DNA of 63,481 nucleotides, counting the filler, from Theionarchaea archaeon (lineage in GTDB: Archaea > Methanobacteriota_B > Thermococci > Methanofastidiosales > SZ-28-30): NCBI GenBank assembly GCA_018992565.1. It is 5 parts of 5 records of this genome, joined end to end, with 100 filler letters (N's around TTAATTAATTAA, not from the genome) between each part and the next. Parts side by side here need not be neighbours in the genome. Positions count along the whole stretch, not along the records: positions 56,185 to 63,481 come from JACVGW010000106.1; 4 more parts are not named here. One strand, written 5' to 3'. Within the stretch, counting starts at the first letter, position 1. The number at the start of each line of letters is the position of its first letter. Below are positions 31,559-63,481 of the stretch, piece after piece. The notes beneath the pieces were generated by a model. It worked only from the letters and a program-made list of their open reading frames with translations. It did not search any database and was not told the origin of the DNA. Made by a program: the position numbers and the translations under genes.

Positions 31559-31658
31559 NNNNNNNNNNNNNNNNNNNNNNNNNNNNNNNNNNNNNNNNNN
31601 NNTTAATTAATTAANNNNNNNNNNNNNNNNNNNNNNNNNNNNNNNNNNNNNNNNNNNN
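31559..31658. other. Artificial contig-join spacer (N-TTAATTAATTAA-N)
   Basis: Six-frame stop linker embedded in N; identical spacer occurs four times. Confidence 0.97.
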
Positions 31659-39808: not shown

Positions 39809-39908
39809 NNNNNNNNNNNNNNNNNNNNNNNNNNNNNNNNNNNNNNNNNNNNTTAATTAATTAANNNNNNNNNNNNNNNNNNNNNNNNNNNNNNNNNNNN
39901 NNNNNNNN
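39809..39908. other. Artificial contig-join spacer
   Basis: N-TTAATTAATTAA-N. Confidence 0.97.
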
Positions 39909-47981: not shown

Positions 47982-48081
47982 NNNNNNNNNNNNNNNNNNN
48001 NNNNNNNNNNNNNNNNNNNNNNNNNTTAATTAATTAANNNNNNNNNNNNNNNNNNNNNNNNNNNNNNNNNNNNNNNNNNNN
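47982..48081. other. Artificial contig-join spacer
   Basis: N-TTAATTAATTAA-N. Confidence 0.97.
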
Positions 48082-56084: not shown

Positions 56085-56184
56085 NNNNNNNNNNNNNNNN
56101 NNNNNNNNNNNNNNNNNNNNNNNNNNNNTTAATTAATTAANNNNNNNNNNNNNNNNNNNNNNNNNNNNNNNNNNNNNNNNNNNN
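56085..56184. other. Artificial contig-join spacer
   Basis: N-TTAATTAATTAA-N. Confidence 0.97.
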
Positions 56185-56237
56185 GCCACAAAAACTAACA
56201 CAACCCAGATGCCTAAAGCTTGCCAGTATATGTTCAT
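56185..56237 (-). CDS. N-terminal fragment of a membrane protein (MNIYWQALGIWVVLVFV)
   Basis: AGGAGG RBS; truncated by contig end. Confidence 0.5.
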
Positions 56238-56315
56238 GTTACCCTCCTAAACGTTGATTTTTCTGTAAGGATATGATTCACTTGATTTTCAGGCTGATAA
56301 GGGTTTTGGTGGTCT

Positions 56316-56343
56316 CACATGTTGGCAAATGTTTACATAAGTA
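56316..56343 (+). repeat. Left terminal inverted repeat
   Basis: Matches reverse complement of 58986-59013; first 14 bp perfect. Confidence 0.75.
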
Positions 56344-56898
56344 AACGTAATAGCTGTGGTTTCTAGTTTTATGTAGATTTCTCAAAATAGGAAAAGCGGA
56401 GAAAAATCGTGATTGCTCTAATGAATTTGGAATATTTGACTGTTTTGAATTTTATACTCTCTATGTTAATTATCAGAAATAATATCGCATCTAAGGCTCT
56501 TAAAAATTATTATGTTGATCTTATATTTTATATTATATCTCTGTTGCTTTCTATTTTTAGTTTAGTATTTCGAAAAATGGTTTCTTATGTCACCACAAAT
56601 TCATAGACAATATGAAACCAGATTGTATCTGGCTTAATATTCCAAAATTCCATCTTAAGAGATGTAAGAAATAACAAATTTATCGAAAGATATATAAACC
56701 TTTATACTTCTGCCTATGTAGAAAATTGAGGGGATACCGAGAAAAGTGAATTCCCTTAAAAACACGAAAATGATCCACGGTCAATCTGCGGAATCTTAAC
56801 TTACTACAGATTGACTACCTAAACGGGATCAAGACAACATCAACTTCTGATTAGGGTCTGTGATGTGGGTCACTAGAACAAAAATAGATGTGGAGAAT

Positions 56899-57126
56899 AT
56901 GTATGAATTACTCGTAATTCTCGTTGGTTCTGTCCTCGCATATTCTGTCTACAGGATAATCGAGCACAGGAGGAAGAAGGAAGAACAAAGAAAGAAACAC
57001 AATGAAGTTCAAAGGAAATGGAGAGAAAAACAGAAAAGGAAACACCTTTTCTGGCAAATGGTAGCTATAGTCTCTACTATTGCTTTGATAATAATCGTCA
57101 TTGCAGTATGTTTCGATCTTCTTTAG
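56899..57126 (+). CDS. Small two-TM membrane protein with basic loop
   Basis: Hydrophobic-charged-hydrophobic 75 aa ORF, GGAG upstream. Confidence 0.55.
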   Translation: MYELLVILVGSVLAYSVYRIIEHRRKKEEQRKKHNEVQRKWREKQKRKHLFWQMVAIVSTIALIIIVIAVCFDLL

Positions 57127-57351
57127 TTTCTTTGGCTTCGATTGATGTTTTCGCACAGCCAAGAGGGTTGCCACAATCCATACGGATATGACTTAAGAGG
57201 ATACTGCATTTCCGAGAAGATATCCTAGAGGAAATTGTACTGGTTGCATCCAGATAAGGAGTGTCCACAAGCCAAATATGATAATGAGAATTATACTCAG
57301 CATCATAAGTTTTCACACTTCATTTAATTCGTTAACCAAGTCTTTTTTCAT
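57120..57351 (-). pseudogene. Probable degraded small membrane-protein gene
   Basis: GGAGGTGA RBS, then one frame MKKDLVNELNEV*KLMMLSIILIIIFGLWTLLIW...AVSS*VISVWIVATLLAVRK with in-frame stops at 57313-57315 and 57193-57195; 3' boundary approximate. Confidence 0.35.
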
Positions 57352-57555
57352 TTCTTCATTAATACTATCACCTCCTTTTATACGCTAAACGAATCTACAT
57401 TTTGAATTCATTAATAATTTAAGCTGAAAAAAGAACAGAGAGCCTGAGGGGGGTGAAAGATTAGAAGTGTTTACAGGCCCTCTGCTGTGCCACTCAGTAA
57501 AAATCCTTTCGGCCTCTGTCCGATTCGATTCTTGCGGTACTATGTGAGAAGGTAA

Positions 57556-57681
57556 TTATCTCGGAATTTCACCGATGCGAGGATATGTCCTTCCTTTCTT
57601 TTTTTCTTTTTCTGGATTGCTATCCTCTCTTTCCCTGTTTTTCTCCTTTTCCAGGTCATCCGGCATGATTGATTCTCCCAT
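57556..57681 (-). CDS. Putative 41-aa highly charged small protein (MGESIMPDDLEKEKNREREDSNPEKEKKKGRTYPRIGEIPR)
   Basis: AGGAGG RBS; divergent from the Lrp-like regulator. Confidence 0.4.
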   Translation of the reverse strand: MGESIMPDDLEKEKNREREDSNPEKEKKKGRTYPRIGEIPR

Positions 57682-57789
57682 ATTTCTACCTCCTTTTTTT
57701 TGTCTCGGATTTTCATTGGTGGAGGCTTGAAATCTCCACGACAGATAGGTTTATAAGCGAGAGCTAGATAACAGTTACGGTGATTTAAC

Positions 57790-58767
57790 ATGCCGAAGTG
57801 GTCGAGGGTACAAATAGAAGACTATTACCACTCTTTGTATCTCTTATTATTGAATGATGCGAGGCAGAATTTCTCTAAAATCGGAAGAAACCTCAATATC
57901 AATGATAAGAGTGCTGCAAAGCTTTACAGGTGGACTTTAGCTGAAGGAGTATTGTCTCCACCATTTCTCAGATTAAATACGTTCCTGAACTATCAGGAGT
58001 ACACATACTTCATGAAGTTTAAGGATGCACAATCAGTCTTCATGAAAATGATTGACGATCCACGCATTATTTATATGGCGCATTGCTCTGGTGCATTCGA
58101 TCTCATGGTGATGTCTCGTGAAAAGATTGATTTCTCCATGGAAAAGGGTTTTGATGGATTCGTTCTGAGTGGACCTAGAAGCGATTTCATATATAACAAA
58201 GTAGAAAGAAGGTCTATGGATGAGTACTACACCATGTTTCAAGATTTCTTAAATACGGGGGAGTTCATTGGATCAGAATTAACATTCTCAGTGAGGAATG
58301 AATTGGTATGGGATGAACAAGACCTCTCTTTGTTTAGATTGTTGAAAAATGACTTGAGAATGAAATATATTGAGATTATTCGCTGCTTCGGTTTTTCTAA
58401 ATCGGTATTCTATGACCACCTTCATAATGTCATGAATACGTGTACAGCATGGATACCATATTATCCACGCGGATATTCAAATTACAATGGTTATTTCATA
58501 TTGTTCAAAACAGATTTTGAGGGGCAGTTAGTAGACATGCTGAGGAAAATGCCTGTGCACTGCCCCATCCTCAAAGTTGATAAGTGGATTTATGCCTATA
58601 TCTTACTAGAACGGAACTTCCTGCAAAATGCCTTTTTTGACTTTCTCAACCTCATGAGTACGTCTGGGTTTGTAGAGGAGTATAAGTATTCTGTTCCAAT
58701 TTCCAACTTTACTAGGAAATGGACTACCCAGGATTTCCCCCACCGTTCCCGATACCTGAGAGAGTAA
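57790..58767 (+). CDS. Tandem-domain Lrp/AsnC-like wHTH regulator
   Basis: Two HTH-like units (DARQNFSKIGRNLNI; WDEQDLSLFRLLKNDLRMKYIEI) and RAM-like SGAFDL. Confidence 0.7.
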   Translation: MPKWSRVQIEDYYHSLYLLLLNDARQNFSKIGRNLNINDKSAAKLYRWTLAEGVLSPPFLRLNTFLNYQEYTYFMKFKDAQSVFMKMIDDPRIIYMAHCSGAFDLMVMSREKIDFSMEKGFDGFVLSGPRSDFIYNKVERRSMDEYYTMFQDFLNTGEFIGSELTFSVRNELVWDEQDLSLFRLLKNDLRMKYIEIIRCFGFSKSVFYDHLHNVMNTCTAWIPYYPRGYSNYNGYFILFKTDFEGQLVDMLRKMPVHCPILKVDKWIYAYILLERNFLQNAFFDFLNLMSTSGFVEEYKYSVPISNFTRKWTTQDFPHRSRYLRE

Positions 58768-58912
58768 GTGGAGAATCTAGGATTGATGCAGGTAACACAA
58801 CTGTGTCGCGACTATTCTCAATTGGGCTATCTAGTGTTTCAGCCAGCAAGTTGGACACTCCCCCCAATAAGAGGAGGGTAGCAAACACCATGGCAAGTAT
58901 GTTCTTATTCAT
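58724..58912 (-). CDS. Small secreted peptide (signal peptide + Gly-rich C-terminus GIGNGGGNPG)
   Basis: GAGGTGA RBS; MNKNILAMVFATLLLLGG signal-like N-terminus. Confidence 0.65.
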   Translation of the reverse strand: MNKNILAMVFATLLLLGGVSNLLAETLDSPIENSRDTVVLPASILDSPLTLSGIGNGGGNPG

Positions 58913-58985
58913 CTTTTCACCTCTTCTATTAATCCAAAGTAGTTTTTAAAAGGTTATGTTTTCTTTGGAGATAAAAGATTTCTGG

Positions 58986-59013
58986 TACGTAAGTAAATGT
59001 TTGCCAACATGTG
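58986..59013 (-). repeat. Right terminal inverted repeat
   Basis: Reverse complement of the left TIR (24/28). Confidence 0.75.
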
Positions 59014-59201
59014 GGTCTGGTCTGTTTACAGACTCCTGAGATAGTCTCCTTTCATTTACTGTCTGATGAAATCATGGCAAAGAATGCCAACAAGGACTCA
59101 GGATAGCCACTCATGGTAAGGGGGCACCAGCATAACATTAATAACCTCAAAAAGCGTATGACTGATGACCTCTATATGAAAGGTTTCACCTAGGTGGTTG
59201 T

Positions 59202-60485
59202 ATGCTGGATAACCTGAGAGCTGTAATCAGAAGGCGGACAGAAAATCCGTATCTGGAAACCCGGTCTGACACAGGAGGGTTTATACTCATGACACTGTTG
59301 AGAGAAGGTCCAATGAGTCTGCGGGAACTGGAAGAAAAGTCCTTCATTCTCATTTCTCAAGTGGGGTTTCACGGAAGTAAACATGAAAAGAACCACCCTT
59401 TTGATATTCCTCTGGAGATGGAAACTCTCTTGAAAGAAGGGCTCGTGACAGTGAGAGAGGAGTGTTACGAGCTGACAGATCAAGGCAGATCAACCGCTGA
59501 AAAGAGTGCAGAAACGATTGAAAGAGGTGCACAGTGGGTCAAAGCCAATATTGTGAATCCTAAAGCAGCTGCCCGAAATACGGTGGTTGCCGATCTCTTT
59601 TTGGCTATAATAAAATTGGGAGCTGCCCTCCTCAGTGGCAGCGTAGGGTTACTGGCTGATGGGGCGGATGCAGCAGTGGACACAGGGTCAGCTGTTGCTG
59701 TGTGGCTGGGTATGAAGGCAAACAGGGAAGTCCTATCAACCGCGGTCATTGTGTGTATGATGGAAGTAACGGGGGTCACTGTAGGATATGAATCAGTCAC
59801 CAAAATCATGGACATACCTCGAGGAATGGTTCAACCCCTGGCTCGACCGTATCTGGTGATTATGGTGGAAGGGGTAGCTTTGGTCTTTGCTGCTCTTCTG
59901 TGTTTCTACCAGGGGTTCACAGGAAAGCGGTTTGGGAGTCTTGCTCTCATATCTCAGTCAATTGATTCAAGGAACCATATGTATGTGGCCACAGCTGTTA
60001 TTGCAGGAGCGGTGTTTTCGCTTGTAGGTATCCACTTTGTGGATGCTCTCATTGGGCTGTATGTTTCCTTCAAGATAATAAGAGATGGGCTTGGCCTTTC
60101 CAGAGAAGTGATTTCTTCATTCAAAGGTGAACCCGTGGATTTCTCCAAGTACGAGGTGCTCCTGGAGAGGCGCTGGAAGGCTGGGCATGAAGATGCAGTC
60201 AGAACCTGGATTCTGTACCTCTTGAGAGATGGTGGACTAACCAGAGAAGAGCTCATTAATGCTCTGGAAAGAACGCTCAAGCGTGCCTATGTCCCACTGG
60301 TTTCAGAGTTTGGATTTGCTCCTGGAACGGGTTATGACTTTAAAGAGCAGTTTGAACAGCTTGTCACTCCGTTGTTGGCTGGAGACGCCCTGAAGGTGGA
60401 AGGTGATACCTTCCTCTTGACTGAAACAGGTTCGTCCAGCCTGAAAAGCACCCTGAAGAATCTCAGGTTCTTTCAACTGGATTGA
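59202..60485 (+). CDS. Cation diffusion facilitator TM domain flanked by wHTH-like domains
   Basis: KL...SGSVGLLADGAD, GSLALISQSIDSRNH, VDALIG; YELTDQG and FLLTETG wing motifs. Confidence 0.75.
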   Translation: MLDNLRAVIRRRTENPYLETRSDTGGFILMTLLREGPMSLRELEEKSFILISQVGFHGSKHEKNHPFDIPLEMETLLKEGLVTVREECYELTDQGRSTAEKSAETIERGAQWVKANIVNPKAAARNTVVADLFLAIIKLGAALLSGSVGLLADGADAAVDTGSAVAVWLGMKANREVLSTAVIVCMMEVTGVTVGYESVTKIMDIPRGMVQPLARPYLVIMVEGVALVFAALLCFYQGFTGKRFGSLALISQSIDSRNHMYVATAVIAGAVFSLVGIHFVDALIGLYVSFKIIRDGLGLSREVISSFKGEPVDFSKYEVLLERRWKAGHEDAVRTWILYLLRDGGLTREELINALERTLKRAYVPLVSEFGFAPGTGYDFKEQFEQLVTPLLAGDALKVEGDTFLLTETGSSSLKSTLKNLRFFQLD

Positions 60486-60742
60486 TGTTCAGGATGGACT
60501 GCTTCACTCCATCAATCCTTATATTTGGAGAAAAATGCAATATATCCTGAACATTCTTCTCCCAAAGTACTTGAGAAAGACTATACTGCCACGAATAGAA
60601 TCCCCGAGAGTGCACTGTTCAACAGTGGCAACGACGGTATCCAAGCTTCTGCTCAGAAATCCCATGTATTTGCAGAAAGGGAAAGTTTTATATGTACTGT
60701 AATATTCCGGTCAAAGTAGTAATAATACAGGAGATGAATGAC

Positions 60743-60910
60743 ATGTGTGAGAGCAAATGCAAGACTGAAGGTCGCTGCGAACATGCAGAGGATGCACGAG
60801 GTTGTGCTTTGAAGCACATAGCAAAGGCACGAGAAATGCTGGCTGAATCCCGATATGAAGAAGCAGACGTCCTGCTGCGTGCTGCTGAGGATCATCTCAA
60901 AGACGTGTAG
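60743..60910 (+). CDS. Small Cys/His-rich protein
   Basis: MCESKCKTEGRCEHAEDARGCALKH; AGGAG RBS; first gene of the operon. Confidence 0.6.
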   Translation: MCESKCKTEGRCEHAEDARGCALKHIAKAREMLAESRYEEADVLLRAAEDHLKDV

Positions 60911-60913
60911 TGG

Positions 60914-61258
60914 GTGCAGCCTGTGTGTCAGAACAACTGCAGGAAAGCAGTACCAGAAGAATCAGAACGATTTACCACGTTCCTAGAATATGCAAGGGCA
61001 CTCCATTGTCCCACGAGGTGGGTTATCATTCGCATCATTGGAGACGACCAGGTGAGCACACATGAGATATTTGAAGCTCTCCAGAATGAAGGGGAGTCCC
61101 TTTCAAAGTCAGGGCTATACTACCATTTATCTGAGCTGGAGAAAACAGGCATTATTGAGTTGGCAGAATATCGCGAAGCGGGTGGGGGAGCTCCTGAAAA
61201 GGTGTGGAGGCTGAAAACCAAGACGCTGACCATCCACCTAGTAGAAGAGGAGACCTGA
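60914..61258 (+). CDS. ArsR-like winged-helix regulator
   Basis: ALHCPTRWVII, LYYHLSELEKTGII, GGAPEKVWRL. Confidence 0.85.
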   Translation: MQPVCQNNCRKAVPEESERFTTFLEYARALHCPTRWVIIRIIGDDQVSTHEIFEALQNEGESLSKSGLYYHLSELEKTGIIELAEYREAGGGAPEKVWRLKTKTLTIHLVEEET

Positions 61259-62173
61259 ATGATTGAAGTCACGCAGTTGACAAAAGTATTTGACACAACC
61301 CGCGCCGTGGATGCAGTTTCATTCACCGTATCAAGAGAGGAAATATTCGGTCTTCTAGGACCTAATGGAGCCGGTAAGACAACCACGATACGGATGCTTA
61401 CTGGTATTCTGAAGCCCACTGAAGGGCATGCACGTATTGGCGGATACGATATTCAAGAGCACCCTCTGGAGGCCAAGCAACTCATGGGGATTGTCCCTGA
61501 AATGGCTAACGCTTACGTTGATTTGTCTCCCTGGAGAAATCTCCTCCTGATGGGGGAGCTGTATGGAATACCCAGAAAAGAAAGAGAAAAGAAAGCTGGA
61601 TCACTTATTGACCTTTTTGCTCTGAGTGAAAAGATGCATCACAGGGTCAGGACCCTATCCAAGGGAATGCATCAAAGGGTTACTGTGGCCATGGCCCTCA
61701 TGAATACGGCCCAGGTTCTCCTTCTGGATGAACCAACGTCGGGACTGGATGTGGAGAGTGCTCGTCTCATCAGGGATATCATCAGAACATCCAGAGAAGA
61801 GGGGACAGCCGTCTTACTCACGACTCACAACCTTCAAGAGGCTGACGAATTATGCAGCAGGATCGCCATCATGAATCATGGGAAGATCATGGCCGTAGAG
61901 CGCCCTGAGAACTTGAAGCGGGCCATCAAGTGTTCTACCTCAGTGGAAGTGGCCTTTGCTCAGGAGGTTGGAGAGCATGAGGTATGGTTTGAGTCAGTTA
62001 ACAGGGTCGAGCGAAAAGGTGATCGATTACGACTCTATACTGAAGCCCCTGAACTCGTTATACCTTTGGTGGTGGACTACTCTAGGAGCACCCAGAACCT
62101 CATTCTCTCCCTCAGCACGATAGGGCCAGATCTTGAAGATGTGTTCCTGCAAGTGACAGGTGGTGGACAATGA
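61259..62173 (+). CDS. ABC transporter ATP-binding protein
   Basis: GPNGAGKTT, LSKGM, LLLDEPTSG. Confidence 0.95.
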   Translation: MIEVTQLTKVFDTTRAVDAVSFTVSREEIFGLLGPNGAGKTTTIRMLTGILKPTEGHARIGGYDIQEHPLEAKQLMGIVPEMANAYVDLSPWRNLLLMGELYGIPRKEREKKAGSLIDLFALSEKMHHRVRTLSKGMHQRVTVAMALMNTAQVLLLDEPTSGLDVESARLIRDIIRTSREEGTAVLLTTHNLQEADELCSRIAIMNHGKIMAVERPENLKRAIKCSTSVEVAFAQEVGEHEVWFESVNRVERKGDRLRLYTEAPELVIPLVVDYSRSTQNLILSLSTIGPDLEDVFLQVTGGGQ

Positions 62174-62910
62174 AAGTGATCGGACAACTGGAAAGATCAT
62201 TGGCAGTGGCAAAAAAAGACCTGCTCGTTTATTTTTTGAAGGGTCCCACACTCATATTTGGACTACTGCTTCCGTCCTTCTTGTTCATCGCATTTGCCAT
62301 TGGCAGAGATTTATCCGTGGAATTTCTCATGCCCGGGCTCCTGGGAATGACAGTATTCTTTACTACATCTGCAGTGGGACCAGTGATTGCTCCCTGGGAA
62401 ACGCGAATGAGAACATTTGAACGGCTAGTTTCCTCGCCCATTGCCTTCTGGGGAATTATCTTGGGTGACGTTATCGCCTCTTCTGCATTCGGTCTTTTCA
62501 TCACGGTAATCGTTCTCACACTTGGGGCTCTTGTTGAAGGTGTGGGAATAATCACCGGCTATCTCGTTGTTGCAACAGTGCTGTCCTCATTTTGCTTTTC
62601 CTCGCTGGGGTTGATGCTGTCTTCTCACCCCACCAGTGACCCATCCCGGATCATGATGCTGTCTACCTTGATCAAGTTCCCTCTCTTCTTAATCAGTGGT
62701 GTCTTTATCCCACTGAGTGAAATGACCAGTGCACGGTTTATTTCCATGCTTTCTCCCCTAACATACTACGTGGATCTTGCCCGGCTCTCAATAGAGGGAA
62801 CCGGGTACTTGAACCCTGGACTAAATGTGGTAGCGCTTGCGCTATGGGGTAGTGCATTCTTTGCCATTGCAGTACTCCTGCATGAGAAGAACCTGGATAA
62901 GCGTTTCTAG
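62170..62910 (+). CDS. ABC-2 type permease
   Basis: PGLLGM, TFERLVSSP, FLISGVFIP, SPLTY. Confidence 0.92.
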   Translation: MKVIGQLERSLAVAKKDLLVYFLKGPTLIFGLLLPSFLFIAFAIGRDLSVEFLMPGLLGMTVFFTTSAVGPVIAPWETRMRTFERLVSSPIAFWGIILGDVIASSAFGLFITVIVLTLGALVEGVGIITGYLVVATVLSSFCFSSLGLMLSSHPTSDPSRIMMLSTLIKFPLFLISGVFIPLSEMTSARFISMLSPLTYYVDLARLSIEGTGYLNPGLNVVALALWGSAFFAIAVLLHEKNLDKRF

Positions 62911-62962
62911 TGTAGTAGAATCCTATGAGAAGACATTTGGACGTGTCAGGGGGTACTGACTA

Positions 62963-63481
62963 TCATCTGCTGTACGTGACGCTAAGGTACACATCCCAGA
63001 CATACAATGCCTTTTTGGGACATCCATCACTCCGCTGCAGCCCTGTATACGCCCATATCATGCCTAATTCTCTCAGATCATCTGGAAATACCTCTAGCAG
63101 ATCAACAAAATCAACAGGGACCCAGTTAACCACGAACACAAACTCGTAGTCACACGCTTTCTTCAACAACAAGGTCATGTAATCTTTCTGGTACTCTTCG
63201 TCGAACTCAAAGTCAGAGTCCAGTGCATGGAAATCCTGGGAAGGAGCTCCTGTCTCCGTTATGGCAATGGGTTTTCCGAACTGGAGAGCACTGTCAAAGT
63301 AATCCTCAGGGACAGGATCCATTCTGTGGGAAGGATCTGCCCATAAAAACGGGTAAACGCTCAGCCCTAGAATATCATTGTATAGCATGAGCTCTTTCAG
63401 TTCCTGCACCTGGACAGCACTATCTGCACCAGCCAACCCCTTAATGTGAGCCAGCGTAAAGGATGCGAACACAGGGAGATC
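62963..63481 (-). CDS. Glycoside-hydrolase-like TIM-barrel protein, C-terminal part
   Basis: DILGLSVYP, KPIAITETG, TGL...DG.PK.AL..W; 5' end outside the window. Confidence 0.6.
   Translation of the reverse strand, partial: DLPVFASFTLAHIKGLAGADSAVQVQELKELMLYNDILGLSVYPFLWADPSHRMDPVPEDYFDSALQFGKPIAITETGAPSQDFHALDSDFEFDEEYQKDYMTLLLKKACDYEFVFVVNWVPVDFVDLLEVFPDDLRELGMIWAYTGLQRSDGCPKKALYVWDVYLSVTYSR

Follow-up and report, generated by a model that had tools for sequence, protein, structure and literature searches.

A probable mobile-insertion-cassette-type transposon carrying a regulator-like protein and a predicted exported peptide in a Theionarchaea genome

Can a segment of archaeal DNA that has the ends of a transposon but no transposase gene have moved as one unit, and if so, what moved it and what does it carry? 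The question is raised by positions 56316-59013 (2698 bp) of a 63,481-nucleotide stretch of DNA from Theionarchaea archaeon (GenBank assembly GCA_018992565.1), a metagenome-assembled genome (MAG); the whole of that stretch, at its full length, is referred to here as the window. An earlier note on this DNA had proposed a non-autonomous element mobilised in trans and could not assign it to a family. We read the segment as a non-autonomous DNA transposon of the mobile-insertion-cassette type, residing in the chromosome of the MAG and served in trans by an ISH3-like partner, and we put the probability of this reading as a whole at about 0.7; that the segment is a transposed unit is, taken separately, very probable. 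Under this reading, the 28-bp ends would be recognised by a DDE transposase, most likely an ISH3-like enzyme that an insertion sequence sharing these ends provided in trans, and the segment would have inserted as one unit, duplicating 5 bp of its target (GGTCT). Its passengers would be genes for a tandem Lrp/AsnC-fold protein and for a Gly-rich peptide that is exported, a 41-codon gene whose 3' end is structured, and two or three small open reading frames (ORFs) of membrane type, and decayed relics of the partner insertion sequence would survive in a sister species.

The window consists of MAG contigs joined by spacers (N44 + TTAATTAATTAA + N44, e.g., at 31559-31658, 39809-39908, 47982-48081 and 56085-56184), across whose joints features are not readable. 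The element sits on contig C81 (window 56185-63481), and its left flank is limited to 131 bases because this contig starts there. The assembly to which the contig belongs (G000; 154 contigs, 2.8 Mb, 88% complete) is one of three available for the genus, the others being from a sister species (G001) and a third species (G002). The closest named relatives of the proteins encoded on the contig are from Theionarchaea / Methanofastidiosia MAGs.

At the termini (Table 1), two 28-bp terminal inverted repeats (TIRs) match at 24 of 28 positions (86% complementary in the repeat search), the outer 14 perfectly, and a GGTCT lies flush against each of them; sequence and repeat search thus confirm what the earlier note had described. 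The GTTTAC-ATAA-GTAAAC palindrome that it had pointed out is likewise present, at 56331-56346, where it overlaps the left TIR, and the interior is indeed richer in A+T than its surroundings (G+C content 0.28-0.41 within the element vs. 0.45-0.50 in the coding flanks, windows touching an N spacer being unreliable). On the right, a second and native GGTCT follows at 59019-59023, so that the flank reads GGTCTGGTCT. The insertion point itself is intergenic, between a small membrane-protein gene and a cation-diffusion-facilitator gene.

As a background set we used all exact 14-mer inverted pairs located 0.3-10 kb apart in the 2.8-Mb assembly (n = 145 distinct). Two of these 145 pairs have a flush 5-bp direct repeat, that of the element and one at C99:2796-5294, and the element's pair alone combines such a repeat with a match of at least 24/28. 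By chance, a flush 5-mer is expected at ~1/1024 per pair, and it was observed in 1 of the 144 other pairs. The C99 pair (flush repeat TCCAT) is probably such a chance case, since its arms match at 18 of 28 positions and the right one lies within a ligase-like ORF.

The earlier note had suggested looking for an allele of the target without the element. Contigs of four public sequencing runs from four studies were aligned to window positions 56185-61500. One contig of run X18 (record 9; 132 nt at depth 7.7), placed at a 90% threshold at which joints can derive from other organisms, covers 56254-56311 and 59018-59088, the two parts being separated by 3 letters. The net loss is 2703 bases, equal to the 2698 bp of the element plus 5, which makes this an empty site without exactly the element and one 5-mer. 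Its two sides, of 58 and 71 nt, are each unique within G000. Nine other letters differ among the 129 aligned (~93% identity), which indicates that the contig belongs to a related strain, as opposed to the same clone, and the 5-mer in that strain is GATTT, two transitions away from the GGTCT seen here.

The occupied site is also present in these data. In X18, the left junction is crossed by record 8 (56254-56614) and the right junction by record 13 (57904-59088), both with 0 differences, and a 7504-nt contig of X19 spans the right one as well. Parts of the stretch have no cover in X17, and loose contig ends fall before 57427 in three of the four aligned runs. Overall, 20 of the 23 listed public runs (7 studies) contain at least 77% of the words sampled from the stretch; none of the listed runs is an RNA run. 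Among the sister genomes, G002 has no flank match, and G001 is without the whole 6.7 kb (window 56260-62995) and therefore has no precise empty site. At the corresponding place in G001 (C3; L015 1576-1830), ~250 bp separate the left-flank membrane-protein gene from the gene found at window 62996-63481, and the cation-diffusion-facilitator, ArsR-like and ABC transporter genes (59202-62173) are also absent there.

The terminus recurs elsewhere, and homology to the element ends at the same base each time; a search for other copies was one of the checks proposed in the earlier note. The exact 14-mer occurs three times in G000, at both ends of the element and at C10:7041, where it belongs to a 67%-identical relic in which the peptide gene is kept and the gene for the 325-aa protein described below survives as a broken C-terminal part. 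In G001, a copy on contig C6 is 89% identical over 1594 bp (window 57428-59013) and ends at the equivalent of 59013. In a three-way alignment of C81, G000:C10 and G001:C6, the flanks diverge right after ...CAACATGTG, and the homology of both other copies to the element stops exactly at 59013. On the opposite side, a further X18 contig (record 10) carries the left end (56316-56395) at 90% identity behind a different flank, which meets 56316 exactly.

Across 34 genomes of the order, the 14-mer CASATGTTGGCAAA has seven matches, six of them within the three genomes of the genus and the seventh in a coding region of a genome from another family. Matches to the 14-mer on viral contigs (n = 119) were attributed to chance because none extends beyond 9 of the next 14 bases. 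Genome and metagenome scans of distant orthologous loci revealed no terminus, the only exact match being in L022, a close copy of the G001 type; searches for the best inverted repeats turned up nothing there beyond an unrelated palindrome, GTTACACGTGTAAC. Separately, L022 2408-2966 compared with G000 C51:9770-9771 shows 558 extra bases in G001, within a 206-aa membrane-protein ORF beside an ABC transporter. In G002, a locus on contig C63 (L009, L042, L046) is a decayed copy: its orthologue of the 325-aa gene is interrupted by two stops, a TGA and a TAG, and the adjoining terminus is degenerate, keeping TACGTAAGT and ACATGG only.

What, then, could have moved the element? No transposase was found inside it, in agreement with the earlier note, when six ORFs of the window and two of the C10 relic were compared with Pfam and four of the window ORFs with NCBIfam; tblastn of P0040, the candidate transposase introduced below, gave a best E-value of 1.9 against the element. 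A possible partner is indicated by G002, which holds two relic termini, one solo (C74) and one beside a DDE remnant (C152). The latter, CAGATGTTGGCAAAGTTTACTTAC, lies ~90 bp past a 54-codon ORF with the motif YRNRWTAENAFK that matches Pfam DDE_Tnp_1 at an E-value of 0.014. P0040 is a full-length relative of this ORF (463 aa, encoded on a contig of 1758 bp): by tblastn, its residues 334-427 match the C152 remnant (E-value 3e-13) with an internal deletion, and residues 267-280 match just upstream in another frame. P0040 itself matches DDE_Tnp_1 (Pfam E-value 3e-10); among NCBIfam models, the ISH3 family transposase fits it best (E-value 1e-28, profile positions 15-296 of 298). In plasmid records, its tblastn matches are mostly haloarchaeal by organism name, at ~26% identity, and several of these places are annotated “transposase”.

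A passage of De Palmenaer et al. (2008, PMC2266710) describes the ISH3 family as archaeal, 1225-1500 bp long, with end bases CRGT and direct repeats of 4-5 bp, typically 5, and from the same passage a 5-bp duplication fits a group of families comprising ISH3, IS701 and IS1634. The end pattern to be expected of a partner insertion sequence is CA[C/G]ATGTTGGCAAA. With a near-identical terminus abutting a decayed ISH3-like DDE transposase in G002, the family left unassigned by the earlier note can tentatively be given as ISH3-like, and we consider the chance that the partner is an insertion sequence of ISH3-like type, which in these genomes has decayed or was not assembled, to be slightly better than even. 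Both ends, the duplicated 5-mer, an empty site, the return of the terminus in other contexts and an interior free of transposase genes are all seen in the data, in line with the non-autonomous element proposed in the earlier note. The DDE chemistry, the ISH3-like partner and mobilisation in trans are what we infer from there; the search for a partner yielded the decayed remnant in G002 and no intact gene in the three assemblies of the genus.

The largest conserved gene of the element encodes a 325-aa protein, for which 39 relatives were collected (54-89% identity, all ~325 aa and without a Pfam domain). No Pfam family matches it above cut-off, and the highest-scoring NCBIfam model, LysM, reaches 22 bits where the cut-off is 180. 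The AlphaFold prediction, for which an alignment of 27 rows was used (predicted local distance difference test score, pLDDT, 76; predicted template-modelling score, pTM, 0.73), contains a winged helix and a ferredoxin-like domain, twice. A Foldseek comparison aligned the full length of the model with NirDL 4ch7 (E-value 1.5e-5, TM-score 0.52/0.54) and each half with Lrp/AsnC regulators. The predicted fold thus has the same two winged-helix + ferredoxin-like (RAM-type) repeats as the Lrp/AsnC (FFRP) regulators and the siroheme decarboxylases NirDL/AhbAB, whereas sequence identity to these is 9-20%, no Pfam domain is matched and the gene is paired with one for an exported peptide (predicted). 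Several acidic residues are invariant in the family.

The family is narrowly distributed. A profile search of 1.84 billion representatives returned 231 clusters only, confined to Theionarchaea/Methanofastidiosia-type genomes. The three genomes of the genus have 19, 20 and 25 matches and the sister genus 1; the order's other three families gave none in 27 genomes searched, and 30 genomes from one more family of the class gave just two weak ones (E-value ~5e-6). We interpret the protein as lineage-specific and, according to the structure model, as a tandem Lrp/AsnC-fold, regulator-like protein. None of the 15 other G000 places that could be evaluated has a related inverted repeat around it (18 places were listed including C81, 2 being too near contig ends), and the C10 place has an unrelated 15-mer inverted pair only. 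A perfect 14-bp palindrome, GTTACACGTGTAAC, occurs 2-4 times per locus around homologous regulator-peptide pairs of distant Theionarchaea (L025, L026, L028, L031 and L033 on metagenome contigs; L009 and L018 in G002) and is absent from the whole G000 assembly. This palindrome is a candidate operator of the 325-aa protein family.

Several observations weigh against the proposed cassette with an ISH3-like partner. The empty site is one short contig of a diverged strain, obtained at the 90% threshold and with GATTT in place of GGTCT; a single complete, two-ended copy of the element is known; and the left TIR of the G001 copy is not above chance (best match 16/28, reached by 191 of 200 shuffles). 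On the side of the enzyme, P0040 scores 100 bits against the ISH3 model, under the curated cut-off of 225; the ends of the element start with CACA, a match to CRGT at two of four bases (the G002 relics, with CAGA, match at three of four); and the link between terminus and transposase is a single decayed locus. G000, an 88%-complete MAG, contains no intact partner (0 matches for P0040, NF033541 and PF01609), G001 has one broken ISH3-like gene with unrelated ends, no close relative of P0040 was found in 133 genomes of the phylum, which are incomplete MAGs, and no intact P0040 gene in 34 genomes of the order, where, the MAGs again being incomplete, absence is not established. The deviant ends, the single decayed locus, the score under cut-off and the missing intact partner would all suit an element that transposed and is non-autonomous but depends on another or unknown DDE family, the adjacency in G002 being coincidental. 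We hold this to be unlikely, since in G002 both the direction of the remnant and its distance to the terminus are as expected of the right end of an insertion sequence, the duplication of 5 bp fits the group to which ISH3 belongs, and no other transposase stands beside any copy of the terminus.

Alternatively, the element could be autonomous, the 325-aa protein being a transposase of a kind not seen before, or such an enzyme's end-binding subunit: its gene is the only sizeable conserved gene beside the terminus in 3 of 3 contexts (C81, C10 and G001:C6), the product combines two winged-helix domains with invariant acidic residues, the family is present in 19-25 matches per genome of the genus, and the palindrome at the left end is of the kind that such proteins bind. 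This is nevertheless very unlikely given a fold of Lrp/AsnC or NirDL type that has neither a nuclease nor an RNase-H-like domain, the 0 of 15 other places bracketed by a related inverted repeat, more distant orthologues that keep the gene pair without the terminus, and the DDE remnant found at the same terminus in G002. Still less probable is an immobile segment whose arms are two inverted operator sites around regulated genes, with GGTCT arising by chance helped by the native GGTCTGGTCT tract. The palindrome in the left arm would fit this idea, as would the different palindrome GTTACACGTGTAAC repeated around the distant loci, the solo TIR-like sites in intergenic DNA of G002 and the tandem GGTCT on the right; yet the arm's last base is where homology to two other copies breaks off, the gene module stands in three unrelated genomic contexts, and a flush 5-mer is rare both in expectation (~1/1024) and in the background set (1/144). 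The short distance from the left end to the start of the contig (131 bases) and the concatenated nature of the window raise, finally, the suspicion of an assembly or binning chimera of the MAG, to which we attach almost no weight: independent assemblies carry the stretch (20 of 23 runs, 7 studies), and the 75-aa ORF of the element is found on a contig of 187,669 bp. Both the operator-site and the chimera explanations are contradicted by the X18 and X19 contigs, which provide an empty site on the one hand and spanned junctions without differences (X18), plus the 7504-nt contig across the right junction (X19), on the other. A site-specific integrase or a provirus as the origin was discarded, there being no integrase, end repeats that are inverted and not direct, and no tRNA target nearby.

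Table 1. Features of the element and its target-site duplication (window coordinates).
Feature	Position	Strand	Basis
Target-site duplication, left copy (GGTCT)	56311-56315		Sequence; single 5-mer in X18 empty-site contig
Left terminal inverted repeat, 28 bp, CACATGTTGGCAAATGTTTACATAAGTA	56316-56343	+	Sequence and repeat search
65-aa ORF, GTG start, hydrophobic	56409-56606	+	ORF call
75-aa ORF, two hydrophobic segments around a basic loop, ORFan	56899-57126	+	ORF call
Conserved unit of ~290 bp	57428-57714	-	Four-copy alignment (this one and three of G001)
Gene for 325-aa protein, tandem Lrp/AsnC-type fold (predicted), main cargo	57790-58767	+	ORF, homologues, structure model
Gene for 62-aa peptide	58724-58912	-	ORF; homologues at the same position
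Right terminal inverted repeat, 28 bp, as read TACGTAAGTAAATGTTTGCCAACATGTG	58986-59013	-	Sequence and repeat search
Target-site duplication, right copy (GGTCT), flush	59014-59018		Sequence

The remaining passengers agree with the regulatory and small-protein cargo envisaged by the earlier note, and their functions are predictions from sequence. Convergent with the 325-aa gene, and overlapping its 3' end by 44 bp, lies the gene of a 62-aa peptide whose N-terminus is signal-peptide-like, whose middle is acidic and whose C-end is a conserved G-x-GN-GGGNPG; from its start, the peptide is predicted to be exported. A homologue occupies the same position in 14 of 15 compared loci, and by inspection similar peptide genes follow at least 5 of 16 G000 paralogues. 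The paralogues on C127, C47 and C102, for example, are followed by small ORFs in convergent orientation, whose products begin like a signal peptide and have a Gly-rich C-end with PG or G as its last residues. Together, these arrangements suggest a protein-peptide pairing that is repeated across the family. One may speculate that the pair forms a self-contained peptide-signalling or archaeocin-type cassette, in which the cytoplasmic tandem-RAM protein would sense or control the peptide, and which would have spread partly via capture in a transposase-less transposon, although we consider this idea rather doubtful.

Divergent from the 325-aa gene is a ~290-bp unit, ~90% conserved, made of a 41-aa ORF (57556-57681, minus strand) and then a conserved, near-invariant 3' region that ends in a hairpin and a U-run. 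Three copies exist in G001 (C6, C22 and C14; L008, L011 and L013), each lying immediately upstream of a tandem Lrp-like paralogue and pointing away from it, and it is with the first base of this unit (57428) that the homology to the G001:C6 copy begins. The unit could represent either a gene, structured at its 3' end, for a small protein, or else a small RNA (minus-strand fold, z = -2.2). A scan against Rfam gave a single sub-threshold match only, no tRNA was found near the element, and a sigma-70 promoter scan is uninformative for an archaeal host.

The left 1.1 kb of the element contains ORFan ORFs of membrane type. The 65-aa ORF, hypothetically a small membrane protein, has no family match in Pfam or NCBIfam and no second copy in the assembly. 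For the 75-aa ORF, all Pfam and NCBIfam matches are under the curated cut-offs, and the only database match is an identical sequence on three contigs, of which the longest is the 187,669-bp one mentioned above.

Among known elements, the closest counterparts are mobile insertion cassettes (MICs), which have the ends of an insertion sequence, a target duplication and passenger genes but no transposase. MIC231 of Bacillus cereus, for instance, is reportedly mobilised by IS231. Here, too, there are inverted ends of insertion-sequence type, a target-site duplication, passengers unrelated to transposition and no transposase gene, the enzyme being presumed to act in trans; compared with MIC231, however, the host belongs to the archaea, the termini are akin to ISH3-like and not to IS231/IS4 ones, and the duplication is 5 bp and not 10-12 bp. 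As stated in PMC6542083, MICs depend on an active transposase; in our case, the partner relics found are decayed, mobilisation in trans is presumed, and the cargo is a lineage-specific regulator-like protein plus an exported peptide, both as predicted.

With the ISH3 family, the element shares an archaeal host, a 5-bp direct repeat and, in a sister species, a near-identical terminus abutting a decayed ISH3-like transposase; it differs in having no transposase inside, in its 2698 bp vs. 1225-1500 bp, in its CACA vs. CRGT end bases and in a related transposase that scores under cut-off. It is thus not an ISH3 insertion sequence itself, having no transposase and the wrong length. Archaeal MITEs (miniature inverted-repeat transposable elements) such as the SM elements of Sulfolobus are short, non-coding and non-autonomous, with insertion-sequence ends and a duplicated target. 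The present element resembles them in its retained ends, its target duplication and its non-autonomy, but at 2.7 kb and with at least three conserved genes it is no MITE. Nor is it a composite (compound) transposon, as its ends consist of 28 bp only, without insertion-sequence bodies.

Passenger-carrying transposable elements are a main route of gene spread in bacteria. To our knowledge, archaeal examples of such transposons are hardly on record. In its Discussion, a 2019 survey that dealt with thaumarchaeal mobile elements gives passenger-gene transposons as undetected in archaea (PMC6563490), and the main text of a study profiling archaeal insertion sequences (PMC13343696) is without the word “passenger” and deals with non-autonomous elements in general terms only. 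In open-access full text, neither transposons of Theionarchaea nor mobile insertion cassettes of archaea were found described. The element described here is real, non-autonomous and mobile-insertion-cassette-like, an archaeal addition to a known class, and it offers a clean case of a passenger transposon in an uncultured sediment lineage, with ends, duplication, empty site and decayed sister copies. If the speculative reading of the passenger pair as a peptide-signalling or archaeocin-type cassette is true, this would be a documented cargo-carrying DNA transposon in Archaea, where the class went undetected according to the Discussion of the 2019 survey (PMC6563490). Its most intriguing content is the pair of regulator-like protein and exported peptide (both predicted), which is hereby marked as mobile cargo and may provide a handle on this multi-copy protein family.

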